The notes beneath the pieces are model-generated. The model searched no databases. It was not told where the DNA came from and worked only from the letters and a program-made list of their open reading frames with translations. A DNA stretch of 33,813 nt from a virus (Duplodnaviria; Caudoviricetes), in IMG/VR virus record IMGVR_UViG_3300020043_001840, positions 1 through 33,813 of that record; one strand, given 5' to 3'. This document shows, piece after piece, positions 7,327 to 12,515 of the stretch. Both the position numbers and the translations under genes were made by a program. Numbering within the stretch: position 1 is the first letter of the stretch; each line of letters opens with the position of its first letter.

Positions 7327-7560
7327 TTAAGCGGTTAGTGCTGCGACCTGAGCCTCGGTGAGGCCAAGTGCAACAAGAGCTGCAATAGCGTCAGCCTTAG
7401 CTTCAGCCTTAGCAGCTTCTTCTGCTTCGCGAGCAGCCTGAGCTTCAAGAGCAGCAGCAGCGTCGATCTCGCGCTGAGCTAGCTCCTCGGCGGTAAGAGG
7501 AATTTCAGTTACAGAACCGTCTTCACAATTTACTTCTAAGCGCGTAATGACTTCAGTCAT
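7327..7560 (-). CDS. Small acidic/Ala-rich protein, possible fibre assembly chaperone
   Basis: EVNCEDGSVTEIPLTAEELAQRE...LVALGLTEAQVAAL; last gene of the fibre cassette; SD aagga favours ATG at 7560 (alternative 7566). Confidence 0.65.
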   Translation of the reverse strand: MTEVITRLEVNCEDGSVTEIPLTAEELAQREIDAAAALEAQAAREAEEAAKAEAKADAIAALVALGLTEAQVAALTA

Positions 7561-8233
7561 TTTCATTCCTTAATTTTTCAGGGGCATAAAGAGCAAGAAG
7601 CTCTAAAGCCCAGTTTACCTTATCTTCGACTCTTTGCCCTTGCGGCTGAGTTGTTGACCAAAGCTCAAGATTCTCTAATCGATTATCAAATCTATCCCCA
7701 TTAATATGATGGACATTTTCCCCAGCAACTAGTGGCCTACCGAGAGCCTCTGCCATAACAAAGCGATGAGTGCGAATATAGCCCCGAGCATCACAATTTG
7801 GATGAGTTGGTTTATAGATAAAGTCATATTTGCTTTTGATTGGATTTTCAGGCTTTGCTTTTACTTGAAATGGATCACCATAAAGCGACCATCTCCGATA
7901 GTGCATTTGGCACATCCCCCGGGCAACTTTTTCTTTGAGGCATTGTCTGCCTTCTTGCTCACTAAGGATGGTGCATCTATCTTTTAGTTTCCGCTCAACT
8001 GGTCGGGTGTAGTTGACATCTCCATGCTTACGAAAGCGATTGTCATGCATACCGCATAAACCTTTGGCTTTCTTTGGATTATTACATCCCTGAACCTGAC
8101 ATCCGACAATTTGAAATGCCTTGGCTCGGTCAGACATATAAAGCGGATCACCGAACAAGCGAAATTTTCGGTAGTGGGTTGGGCAGTAACCCTTTGCAGT
8201 TACTTTTTTGTTACAGTTTTCAACTTTACACAT
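7553..8233 (-). CDS. HNH homing endonuclease with three N-terminal Cys/His repeats
   Basis: Three C..C....A.G.C..H..R....GD repeats; HRFVMAEALGRPL..GENVHHINGDRFDNRLENLELW; AT-rich. Confidence 0.9.
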   Translation of the reverse strand: MCKVENCNKKVTAKGYCPTHYRKFRLFGDPLYMSDRAKAFQIVGCQVQGCNNPKKAKGLCGMHDNRFRKHGDVNYTRPVERKLKDRCTILSEQEGRQCLKEKVARGMCQMHYRRWSLYGDPFQVKAKPENPIKSKYDFIYKPTHPNCDARGYIRTHRFVMAEALGRPLVAGENVHHINGDRFDNRLENLELWSTTQPQGQRVEDKVNWALELLALYAPEKLRNEND

Positions 8234-8239
8234 ATATAA

Positions 8240-8248
8240 AGTCTATCA
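8240..8248 (-). promoter_or_regulatory. Extended -10 (TGA-TAGACT), leaderless promoter of the HNH gene
   Basis: -10 ends 6 nt before ATG 8233; no SD. Confidence 0.6.
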
Positions 8249-8257
8249 GTAGAAATC

Positions 8258-9258: not shown

Positions 9259-9272
9259 AAGTTAGCCTTCCT

Positions 9273-9854
9273 TTATTTCAGGCCGTAAAGGCTGAATCGG
9301 CTGCCAGTAACAAAGTTGAAAGCGGATGAAGAACCAAACACCAAACTAGTAACCGCTGAAGTAGACAGCCAAGCCGCCGACCAAAGACCAACATAAGTGT
9401 TACCCGCAGAACCGACATTGCCATATAAAGAGCGAACAGTTTTATTTTTGCTTGTGTTAGAAAAATCAAGAATGTCCACAATGCTAGTTGCGAAGCCATT
9501 GCTAACATCCGACTGCATTGCATTGCCAACTCTTGCAGAGGTTTGACTTGTGCCAGCGGCTGAGAGGGCTGATGAGCCATTGCCGTAAAGAATGTGCCAA
9601 GCATAGTTTGAACCGCTATCGCCATTTATTTGCATAGTCACATCGAACATTGAACTAACCGACTTAGCGGTGTATCTAATCTGTAGATGCTTGTAAGCAG
9701 CAGCCGAAGTTCCCAACCCTGAGAAGGTCACAGAAGCAGCAGATGAACCTAGAACAGTCGTGCTGATCAGTTCATAGTCTGCCGCAGCCGTAGTCGGACC
9801 GTATCTACGCCAAGCTCTAGCTGTCGCATTTCCAATTGTTTGAAGTAAAGGCAT
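9273..9854 (-). CDS. Fibre/adhesin tip protein, paralog 1
   Basis: MPLLQTIG N-terminal peptide; YELISTTVLGSSAASVTFS...YKHLQIR...NGDSGSNYAWH...DFSNTSKNKTVR...W.STSAVTS...GSRFSLYGLK. Confidence 0.72.
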   Translation of the reverse strand: MPLLQTIGNATARAWRRYGPTTAAADYELISTTVLGSSAASVTFSGLGTSAAAYKHLQIRYTAKSVSSMFDVTMQINGDSGSNYAWHILYGNGSSALSAAGTSQTSARVGNAMQSDVSNGFATSIVDILDFSNTSKNKTVRSLYGNVGSAGNTYVGLWSAAWLSTSAVTSLVFGSSSAFNFVTGSRFSLYGLK

Positions 9855-10432
9855 TATGCCGCCTTAGTTTGCGAAGCCAATACTGTAAAGGTAGCCGAAG
9901 CGGTCTTAATGATCGTGACTGTGTAAATGTCAATTGATGAAGCGTTGCCAGCAGTTGGTGCAGTGCCACCAAGCCACTTAGGGGTAACTGCGGAGCCGTC
10001 GATCTGCCAAGCGTTTGGGTAGTAGGCAGTGGTTCCGTTAGTAACTAGCAAGGTTGCAGTAACTGATTCACCAACAGCCATAAGGGTGTTGAGTGAAACA
10101 GTTGAAGTTGATCGGAAGTTAACGGTTCCTGAGGCGGTAGAGTTTGCTGTAATGTACTGCACTTCACCGCTAGTAGTTACATCGTAGGTATAACCAGCGA
10201 AGCCAGTACCAACAACGGTGACTTTTTCACGGGTTGAACCCTGCAAAAGAACGCCAGTAAGCGATGATACTGAAAGACCGCCGTAAGCAAGAGAGGTCCA
10301 GGCGGTAGAGCCGTCACCAATCTTGAAAAGTTTTGAGTCAGTTTCTAGGCCAAGCTCACCAATGGCAAGGGTAGGGTTAGCCGAGGTCCAGTTCGCGGCA
10401 GTATCGCGCCTGAATTGAATTTGAACAGCCAT
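9854..10432 (-). CDS. Fibre connector protein with Mtd-N-type (hyaluronidase-N-like) domain
   Basis: [50 protein letters not shown]; beta-rich C-terminus KWLGGTAPTAGNASSIDIYTVTIIKTASATFTVLASQT; TAATG coupling. Confidence 0.8.
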   Translation of the reverse strand: MAVQIQFRRDTAANWTSANPTLAIGELGLETDSKLFKIGDGSTAWTSLAYGGLSVSSLTGVLLQGSTREKVTVVGTGFAGYTYDVTTSGEVQYITANSTASGTVNFRSTSTVSLNTLMAVGESVTATLLVTNGTTAYYPNAWQIDGSAVTPKWLGGTAPTAGNASSIDIYTVTIIKTASATFTVLASQTKAA

Positions 10433-12258
10433 TAGACTCCACTCGCATTTCCACCAGTAATTGGTGAGATTCCGCCATAAATTGAATTTGATGCTCCACC
10501 ATCAATATTAGCATAGCCCATCGGAGCAGAAGAGTTTTTCCAGAGCCCACTAACTGAGTCGTATTTTAGGACCTGCGACTCAGTTGGTGTAGTGATCGAA
10601 ACATTGTGAAGCTCTTCGAGTTCGTAGCCGTTTTGCACCTTGACGAAGATCTCGCCATTGATGCTTTGCACACGCGAAACAACACCCAGGTAGACAGAGT
10701 GTGCTGGTTTTGCTGGCGGAGCGCCAAAGACAAAGCCACCTGCTGTGCTTGAAAGCCAAACTGATTGTCCTGCAGTTGCAGTGCTAGTATCCAACCCAGC
10801 AAGCAAACCTTCTGTGACTACATAGCCAGTAGACTCAGTAGTCAAAGCTGACTCAAGAATACCCATCGTCTTAGATGAGGTTGCTTCAGTGTCTGCGTCA
10901 GCCAAGGAGACATTCATGTTAGTTCCGTCAGCTGACGAAACATAAACAACAGAACCCTTTGGCATTGTAGAGCCAGAGTTGTTCTTTACAAGGTGCTTGA
11001 CCTGACCCGTGTAGTTGTCGATCCAGCTTGTGTTGTAGTCGGTGCCGTCAACTTTTGAGAGGATCTGTCCAGCAGTTCCGCCAGCAGCAACGCCAGGTCC
11101 TGCAGGCCCTGTAGCGCCTGTTGCACCAGTTGCGCCTGTAGCACCAGTTGCGCCAGTTTCACCTTGAATACCTTGAGGGCCCTGAGGTCCAGTTTCGCCT
11201 TGAATGCCCTGAGGCCCAGTTGCTCCAGTGGCACCAGTAGGCCCTGTTGCACCCGTAGCGCCAGTAGGTCCAGCTGGTCCAGTATCGCCAGTGTCACCCT
11301 TTACGCCTTGGATACCCTGAATACCCTGAGGGCCAGTGTCGCCAGTGTCGCCCTTGACTCCTTGAATACCCTGGATACCCTGAGGTCCAGTAGCACCAGT
11401 TGCTCCAGTCTCGCCCTGAATACCCTGAGGTCCAGTAGGACCAGTAGGTCCAGTAGGACCAGTAGCACCAGTTGCTCCAGTAGCGCCAGTAGGGCCCTGA
11501 GGTCCAACAATCTGACCTACGCTAGTCCAGGTCGTGCCATTCCAGATGTATAGATCGCCATCCGCTTCAACAATGTAGCCATCGCCTACTGCAACGCCAG
11601 TAGTCGGGAGATCGCCAACAGTTGGCACCGAGCCCTCAATAGTGGCAGCAGCGCCAGTGGCACCAGTCTCACCCTGAATACCTTGGATACCCTGAGGTCC
11701 TTGTGGTCCAGTGGCACCAGTTGCACCAGTTGCACCAGTAGCACCAGTAGCGCCCTGAGGTCCAGTCTCGCCTTGGATACCCTGCTCACCCTGAATACCT
11801 TGGATGCCCTGCGGGCCCTGAGCGCCAGTAGCCCCAGTTTCGCCCTGAATACCCTGAGCGCCAGTTTCACCCTGAATACCTTGCGGTCCAGTTGCTCCAG
11901 TTAGTCCAGTGGGACCTTGTGGTCCAGTTGCTCCAGTTAGTCCAGTGGCACCAGTTGCACCAGTAGGACCAGTTGGCCCAGCAGGACCAGTTGCACCAGT
12001 AGGACCTACCGCTCCTTCGAGCGATGCGATCCATTGAGTTTCAGTGCCAACAAAGCCGTTAGCAACTGCGATCTCGTACGCAGATAGACCCGCGGTGCCT
12101 TGCGTAAAGTATGGAAGGCTAACCCAGTTAGAGGTTCCATCGCCGATCTTGACTTTGAGAGTGTCGTCCTCAACACCCATTTCACCGTCAGCAAGGGTAG
12201 GGTTTACGGAGGTCCAATCAGCAGCTGGACCACGGCGCAGCTGAATAATGATTGCCAC
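10432..12258 (-). CDS. Collagen-like tail fibre with Mtd-N-type N-terminal domain
   Basis: [30 protein letters not shown]...KIGDG; two long Gly-X-Y tracts; [33 protein letters not shown]-terminal NIDGG. Confidence 0.88.
11090..12010 (-). repeat. Collagen Gly-X-Y coding repeats in two blocks
   Basis: [15 protein letters not shown] triplets; exact 28-nt direct repeat ggtccagttgctccagttagtccagtgg at 11885-11912 and 11921-11948. Confidence 0.95.
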
Positions 12259-12515
12259 TAGATAATTCCTCCTCCATCAATGTGCGGAATAGGCGTGTAA
12301 ATCGTGGCGGGATAGCCGCCATCAATATTGAAAATTCCGCCTTCAATGTCAGAGAACTTGATGCGAGCAGAGTTCTTGCCATCGTGATTGTGATTGCCAG
12401 GAGAAGCCTGATTAGGACCTATACCGAGCGTGTGGTGCAAAGCTGTCTTGGCTGAGTCCTTGTCAGAGTTGAGGTGAAAGAAGTTCACTTCCTCTGGAGA
12501 CGCAACATTAGCCAT
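12258..12515 (-). CDS. Small virion protein, possible fibre anchor
   Basis: [32 protein letters not shown] and C-terminal IEGG/IDGG/IDGG; first gene of the fibre operon; leaderless start. Confidence 0.72.

Follow-up and report, generated by a model that had tools for sequence, protein, structure and literature searches.

In the distal tail fiber of phage T4, trimers of gp36 and gp37 form one rod, (gp36)3-(gp37)3 (10.64898/2026.03.06.709160), and in Bordetella phage BPP-1 the protein Mtd is a trimer located at the fiber ends, with two Mtd trimers per fiber (PMC2408619). The N-terminal domain of Mtd, the founder of family PF18454 (Mtd_N; PDB 1YU0), is annotated as a receptor-specificity domain (PMC9206674). 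Here we analyzed a stretch of freshwater-type phage DNA of 33,813 nucleotides (nt; IMG/VR record IMGVR_UViG_3300020043_001840, positions 1 to 33,813; hereafter the window) in which a run of fiber genes on the minus strand, adjoining the terminase module, encodes two C-terminal peptides with a double Asp-Gly-Gly (DGG) motif and two copies of Mtd_N. Based on sequence comparisons, we assign a probability of about 0.75 to the reading that each tail docks on the Mtd_N of the following protein and completes its cap, in a three-to-three arrangement that would link the proteins as a fiber. The features that make up the two proposed joints are the following:

12258..12515, minus strand: 85-amino-acid (aa) protein with a conserved N-terminal domain (phrog_36468-like) and a double-DGG tail
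12261..12329, minus strand: tail 1, double motif NIDGG...HIDGG, C-terminus of the 85-aa protein
10432..12258, minus strand: 608-aa collagen-like shaft with an Mtd_N head, 41+46 GXY triplets, a C-terminal non-collagen domain and a double-DGG tail
12094..12258, minus strand: Mtd_N head 1, candidate docking site of tail 1 (PF18454, E 7e-14)
10435..10509, minus strand: tail 2, NIDGG...PITGG, C-terminus of the 608-aa protein
9854..10432, minus strand: 192-aa adaptor with Mtd_N head 2 and a C-terminal beta domain (phrog_5906-like)

The 85-aa gene shares 1 nt with the GTG at which the 608-aa gene starts, and the 608-aa gene in turn overlaps the ATG of the 192-aa gene by 1 nt. Mtd_N was found at residues 5-43 of the 608-aa protein (E 7e-14, 51.8 bits) as well as at residues 5-43 of the 192-aa protein (E 1e-15, 57.5 bits), both N-terminal matches exceeding the Pfam gathering cut-off of 26.3 bits, and the GXY runs of the shaft span residues 82-204 and 252-389. 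Coordinates, overlaps and PF18454 matches bear out an earlier note on this DNA, which had described two IDGG tails, each directly ahead of a gene starting with Mtd_N. Its consensus NIDGG-x4-IY-x2-I-x2-I(D/T)GG fits both tails, and its assignment of the heads to the domain type found in Bordetella phage Mtd and phage hyaluronidases agrees with the PF18454 matches and with the best fold matches, the N-domains of HylP and Mtd. The heads share only 29/52 aa and 86/156 nt (55% nt identity), on which ground we rejected the idea that one module was recently duplicated from the other.

The association of tail and Mtd_N genes was examined in both directions. The forward comparison covered 79 IMG/VR loci (from the best 80 of 595 confirmed) and 47 GTDB loci with the window's Mtd_N, using script-called genes after removal of near-identical tails; the motif was defined, after a first look at the loci, as [ILVMFAYT][DNE][GAC]G within the last 26 residues. 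It was present in 46/62 genes that immediately precede an Mtd_N gene versus 19/461 other genes of the same loci in IMG/VR, and in 35/46 versus 11/287 in GTDB, while internal windows of the upstream proteins located 40-66 aa further in contained it in only 3/56 (IMG/VR) and 1/41 (GTDB) cases. The stricter terminal DGG gave 23/62 versus 5/461 and 25/46 versus 3/287, respectively. The bodies of 75 upstream proteins fell into 28 BLAST components with lengths from 46 to 914 aa, and the tail therefore travels on unrelated proteins. For the converse comparison the DNA pattern IDGGTA-stop, which is blind to Mtd_N, yielded 125 loci with 103 distinct matches, 100 of them usable (in an open frame with enough downstream DNA; dereplicated by exact flanks only, with some contigs recurring from the forward set), and an Mtd_N gene followed directly in 68 of these 100. 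The adjacency check suggested by the earlier note thus revealed strong enrichment of the pairing in both directions. By these sequence counts the DGG/Mtd_N pairing is general, occurring in many unrelated phages, and is not peculiar to the window phage.

The motif could also have arisen from translational coupling, with the GGAGG that serves the next gene being translated as Gly-Gly in the preceding gene. At the first junction of the window the last GGAGG of tail 1 does precede the next start by the spacing of a Shine-Dalgarno site, where the sequence reads GGAGGAGGA, and across the set 22/68 terminal GG pairs, including this junction, are GGAGG located 4-12 nt from the next start. However, 43/68 terminal GG pairs do not begin with GGA, and the upstream DGG codons are unbiased (GGA in 6/55) and also too distant from the start; among coupled gene pairs the motif was found in 14/292 when the downstream gene was not Mtd_N versus 68/82 when it was; and the motif is kept inside fusion proteins as well as read as D-F/Y-G in T4-type tails. 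A Shine-Dalgarno origin as the sole cause was rejected on the non-Mtd_N coupled pairs, the codon use and the motif inside fusions, and the coupling explanation in this form appears largely refuted by the fusions and the codon and coupling counts; we regard it as very improbable. The Shine-Dalgarno sequence is best described, from the codon data, as an overlay on the motif and not its cause.

Single-chain proteins provided a second line of evidence. Among 120 longer Mtd_N proteins, 75 contained more than one copy, giving 39 dereplicated internal copies, and the motif was present within the 30 residues before 14 of these 39 compared to 86/3976 control windows (2%); one of the 14 matches is spurious, and four further degenerate cases were left uncounted. 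The protein P0241 consists of three repeats of collagen, the double motif and Mtd_N within one polypeptide, so that a single gene holds the arrangement seen in the window, and gp34 of Arthrobacter phage Ranunculus has AIDGG directly before an internal Mtd_N. Natural fusions of peptide and Mtd_N, the other check proposed by the earlier note, therefore exist. That note had taken each tail to be the ligand of the next protein's Mtd_N; both sequence checks run, adjacency and fusions, came out in favor, and from them we infer the binding itself.

The relatives of the 85-aa protein follow the same association. The tail was present in 8/21 relatives, of which five abut an Mtd_N gene, two have an HNH gene inserted and one lies on a cut contig, while none of the 13/21 relatives without the tail had an Mtd_N gene in up to 7.5 kb downstream. 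The close relatives L265, L270 and L037, which are 76-93% identical in the 85-aa protein, contain different distal modules behind the collagen gene and exchange all genes downstream of the joint. The L265 shaft carries one IDGG at its end, and the head that follows it has the longer arm. Behind the collagen shaft of the other two (L270:4573-4913, L037:3734-4308), genes ending in FLLMGA or FLLAGM followed by M(A/P)TTYK(I/V)L starts replace the DGG/Mtd_N joint, and this combination is a candidate further plug-and-socket pair judging by the sequences.

These fusions and losses also bear on the idea that the tail merely caps or folds its own chain and is co-inherited with the Mtd_N gene as a recombination cassette, with no contact between the two proteins. 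Such a role would account for the motif at the end of genes that do not precede Mtd_N (32/100 in the converse set) and is compatible with the crystallization of Mtd and hyaluronidase without a partner, so that Mtd_N folds alone. It is hard to reconcile with 28 unrelated carriers bearing the motif, with the loss of the motif together with Mtd_N, and with fusions in which the motif directly precedes Mtd_N and not the chain end, and we consider it unlikely.

To place the joint among named phages, 16 GenBank records were picked for diversity from 60 listed among 600 matches and combined with BPP-1, giving 17 phages. A clear DGG tail before Mtd_N was observed in nine of these (Anekin, Ranunculus, DoCa10, TZGordon, the TM7 phage, Roman, Qui, MissF and Shambre1), of which the TM7 phage, Qui and Shambre1 have chains of two links, and variant tails were found in three (BPP-1 ADLGGIA, Javan494 ILYGGKK and Hydrus IDG...LDG). 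The DGG/Mtd_N pair of Microbacterium phage Roman (L090:3483-4330) is located right after the major capsid gene, and the joint may therefore also build head fibers. Similar 46-aa proteins with two terminal IDG/LDG motifs are encoded by ReqiPoco6 (gp017, L289:2509-2649) and Hydrus (gp2, L088:481-621); Hydrus gp2 adjoins an Mtd_N gene, and ReqiPoco6, which has six Mtd_N genes, encodes gp017 at a distance of about 6 kb from the last one. In S-CREM1, gene 166 (L293:512-2620), an upstream structural protein of the baseplate region, contains an internal INLDGG at residue 472 and is a possible non-adjacent partner of the cyanophage Mtd_N fiber. Saccharibacteria-assigned contigs (L094, L095, L097, L099 and L104) exhibit a second Mtd_N subtype (QxKWRRD) after genes ending in D-Y-I-E-T-D-N/Y, not DGG.

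Several observations weigh against the joining role of the tail. The pairing is not obligate, since the motif was absent from 16/62 (IMG/VR) and 11/46 (GTDB) upstream genes, and the loci behind these counts were selected by similarity to the window's Mtd_N, with kin filtered by tail identity only. In the converse set 32/100 IDGGTA-ending genes precede other genes, and several such loci hold an Mtd_N gene elsewhere. Terminal GG is enriched for GGA (25/68 versus 31/245 in the background), so the Shine-Dalgarno role does contribute. The majority of internal Mtd_N domains (25/39) lack a preceding motif, most of them tandem or degenerate heads. Five of the 17 GenBank phages (ReqiPoco6, Syn33, S-CREM1, Skysand and ChisanaKitsune) have no adjacent tail, and Syn33 and S-CREM1 represent the largest match class, the cyanophages (299/600 records). 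The window itself contains a third IDGG gene, which precedes a small putative lysis gene and no Mtd_N:

33154..33330, minus strand: 58-aa protein ending in a single IDGG, no adjacent Mtd_N gene

Among its eight complete relatives five also end in DGG/NGG and are followed by a small non-Mtd_N gene. The 58-aa protein has a conserved N-terminus, and its relatives (L295-L302), which end either in a DGG/NGG tail (five) or in a C-terminal domain of their own (two), always precede the same 83-aa gene. It is possibly a second anchor that would accept a head in trans.

Such a gene would fit a promiscuous scheme in which any tail takes any head, forming alternative or branched fibers, and the gene order fixes no single chain; the 192-aa adaptor could then sit directly on the 85-aa or the 58-aa protein. 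Besides the third IDGG gene, the six Mtd_N genes of ReqiPoco6 with their distant 46-aa IDG...IDG gene resembling Hydrus gp2, the loci such as L053 in which a single tail is followed by a series of Mtd_N genes, and the two Mtd trimers on each BPP-1 fiber (PMC2408619) point in this direction. On the other hand, adjacency is strict in most cases, with 1-nt overlaps, and both the chains of two links found in three named phages (TM7 phage, Qui and Shambre1) and serial fusions such as P0241 argue for a defined order. Promiscuous binding is thus improbable, if less so than a tail that caps its own chain, and serial joining of adjacent gene products remains the preferred reading.

A comparison with the described systems revealed likenesses as well as differences. 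T4 gp36-gp37 resembles the joint proposed for the window in being a serial trimer-to-trimer joint of adjacent genes with an Mtd_N-like start of gp37 and a D-x-G end of gp36. Residues 5-51 of gp37 matched the Mtd_N profile over 47 columns in hhalign (92.8% probability, E 3.9e-7), where BPP-1 Mtd scored lower (85.5%), and also by hmmsearch (E 4e-5, among five T4 proteins), while Pfam does not call Mtd_N in gp37. For the T4 type, T4 and five phages picked from 30 listed among 1296 matches were compared, and the gene before gp37 ended in D-x-G-x-(F/Y) in five of the six (T4 QDFGYY, RB49 IDFGTF, AbTZA1 LDYGTF, UTI-K1 IDFGTY and 9A MDGGVF), the exception being Vibrio phage 2.275.O, which has no D-x-G end. 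T4-type tails carry a single D-F/Y-G-x-F/Y in contrast to the double DGG of the window phage, a podovirus-like actinophage in which the joint involves a collagen shaft and a small adaptor. No homologs of the T4 long tail fiber proteins gp34, gp35 and gp36 (PF21446, PF21560 and PF03903) were present among the window proteins scanned, and portal, adaptor and capsid are podovirus-like. A T4 long tail fiber proper was rejected for the window, there being no gp34/gp35/gp36 homologs on a contractile tail.

BPP-1 shares with the window the N-terminal Mtd_N of Mtd and an upstream fiber gene, bbp9, that ends in ADLGGIA. In BPP-1, Mtd is the receptor-binding tip itself and is diversified by a retroelement, whereas the window phage uses Mtd_N twice in series, in shaft and adaptor. 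Neither a reverse transcriptase nor the second domain of Mtd (PF21916) had a Pfam match among 29 window proteins, a template repeat not having been searched for, and a tropism-switching cassette of the BPP-1 type was rejected on these two absences. The streptococcal hyaluronidase HylP (PDB 2C3F, 6X3M), a trimer, is the best sequence and fold match of the window heads, and the upstream tail-tip gene of hyaluronidase loci ends in ILYGGKK (Javan494) or FIFDGGRT (MissF). HylP differs in being an enzyme fiber on a siphovirus tail tip with a single link and a Firmicutes host, and it lacks the chain of collagen, adaptor and triplet.

Branched receptor-binding protein systems use T4 gp10-like/XD docking domains (CBA120 TSP4) or the 'conserved peptide' anchors of Klebsiella podoviruses, and like the window they attach one receptor-binding protein modularly to another. 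In these the carrier has a folded docking domain and the newcomer brings the peptide, whereas in the window phage these roles are reversed, with the peptide at the C-terminus of the carrier and the domain on the newcomer; fold matches to CBA120 TSP4 were weak (E 0.03, template modeling (TM) score 0.24). No solved structure of Mtd_N with a partner peptide was found by sequence or by fold, and PDB sequence searches gave no match for the 85-aa protein, T4 gp36, the gp37 N-terminus or the tip family. No description of the motif or of the joint residues was found in the literature searched, which included little of the subscription literature.

Taken together with the T4 and BPP-1 comparisons, the window joint is probably the same as, and homologous to, the gp36-gp37 and Bbp9-Mtd joints. 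In the proposed mechanism DGG peptides would connect three proteins in line within one virion fiber: the 85-aa protein, likely the first link, then the collagen shaft, and then the 192-aa adaptor. The three tails of one trimer would add beta-strands to the three-fold cap that Mtd_N forms on the following trimer. Recombination at the joints would exchange distal modules and hence receptors. PF18454 would then be a socket, gaining a function other than receptor specificity; the attachment of gp37 to gp36 and of Mtd to the BPP-1 fiber would be explained and could be tested by point mutants, multi-gene fibers would become predictable from uncultured phage genomes, and a short trimer-to-trimer tag would be available for protein assembly and for phage work with laboratory strains.

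Tail type and head arm may be matched to each other. In pairs with a single tail the head arm was two or more residues longer in 29/43 cases, compared to 4/73 pairs with a double tail, and T4, the TM7 phage, Roman and Ranunculus conform to this association. Co-evolution of the two was not supported by a tree of the 50-aa core, which was unresolved and contained only one supported independent pair, and on the present sequences the match is to be taken as a lead.

The downstream part of the run encodes the putative tip and further genes:

9273..9854, minus strand: paralog 1, 193 aa, the sole paralog with an extra N-terminal arm (MPLL...ARAW)
8788..9258, minus strand: paralog 2, 156 aa, predicted 12-strand beta-sandwich, loosely of the ConA/galectin type
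8258..8785, minus strand: paralog 3, 175 aa counted from the ATG at 8785
7553..8233, minus strand: HNH endonuclease gene, 226 aa, an insertion outside the fiber, not at this place in relatives L267 and L268
7327..7566, minus strand: 79-aa (probably 77-aa) small protein, which comes after the paralogs in relatives; weak XkdW lead

The three paralogs share 28-34% pairwise identity. The earlier note had listed three paralogous tip proteins followed by a small protein; the paralogs hold, while the HNH gene, which it did not mention, separates the third paralog from the 79-aa gene. The XkdW lead for the 79-aa protein comes from 21% of a cluster (score 0.85) and is weak.

The monomer model of the 192-aa adaptor (mean predicted local distance difference test score (pLDDT) 89) gave 2C3F (E 7e-4), 2YVV and 6X3M as top Foldseek matches and superposed on 1YU0 with a root-mean-square deviation (rmsd) of 2.8 Å over 40 residues, while its C-domain had only a weak fold match to a capsid spike (E 0.011). 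Weak fold matches of the model m91ba66deb368 to the trimerization domains of collagen XV/XVIII (E 1.6-3.1, TM score by target 0.53-0.58), probably through the head, make a distant relation of Mtd_N to these domains possible. In 5/7 distinct cases the gene after an adaptor-type C-domain starts with an arm of the MPL(L/F) type or one closely similar to it. The C-domain end TVLAS(Q/V)(T/S)K(A/F)A precedes the MPL(L/F) arm on otherwise different proteins (window junction at 9854; L155, L167 and L171). A second joint is suggested by this succession and by the restriction of the arm to the first paralog, and paralog 1 likely docks on the adaptor C-domain; this joint of C-domain and MPLL arm would hold a heterotrimeric tip.

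Three copies per locus were present in 14 of 24 listed loci of the paralog family and six in L037, the others having one, two or four, with many cut by contig ends. Because the paralogs come three per locus, they likely form a heterotrimeric tip. The model of the 156-aa paralog 2 (pLDDT 94) is a beta-sandwich whose best structural match is a GH32 C-domain (Z 7.8, rmsd 3.1 Å, 111 residues), with further matches to galectin (Z 6.8) and legume lectins; none of the matches reached Z >= 8 and they were not above background. A TNF/C1q-like fold for the tip, Foldseek rank 1 (TM score 0.22), was not upheld by later structural comparison. Paralog 2 had no Pfam or PHROG match, and its Atlas neighbors are unnamed viral proteins. 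It is likely, from the modeled fold, a glycan-binding tip subunit, and the chain would likely end in three lectin-like paralogs.

A broader proposal extends these joints to a portable connector code, in which T4, BPP-1, streptococcal, actinobacterial and uncultured phages would all use a C-terminal D-x-G peptide to complete the cap that Mtd_N forms on the following trimer, with two matched types (single tail and longer arm, double tail and short arm), and further joints (...TVLASQTKxA to the MPLL arm and ...FLLMGA to MxTTYK) would attach a heterotrimeric lectin-like tip. We hold this extension as tentative, at somewhat less than even odds; if it is true, whole fiber architectures would be readable from gene order and could be rebuilt from parts.

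Profile scans of the window proteins identified terminase, a P22-like portal, an SU10-type adaptor and a major capsid protein, and the window looks like a podovirus-like phage genome, complete or in large part; an exact terminal repeat was looked for in the window and not found. The capsid protein shares 34-38% identity with its counterparts in phages of Arthrobacter, Microbacterium and Cellulosimicrobium, and a WhiB gene is located at 464-823 (plus strand), and the host is therefore likely an actinobacterium. A second HNH gene is located at 5524-6090 (plus strand), and a short Cys/His-rich open reading frame at 17-268 (plus strand) resembles HNH N-terminal repeats. HNH genes enter this operon at varied sites (window 7553-8233), including exactly between the tail gene and the Mtd_N gene (L266:8258-8662, L269:8258-8656).

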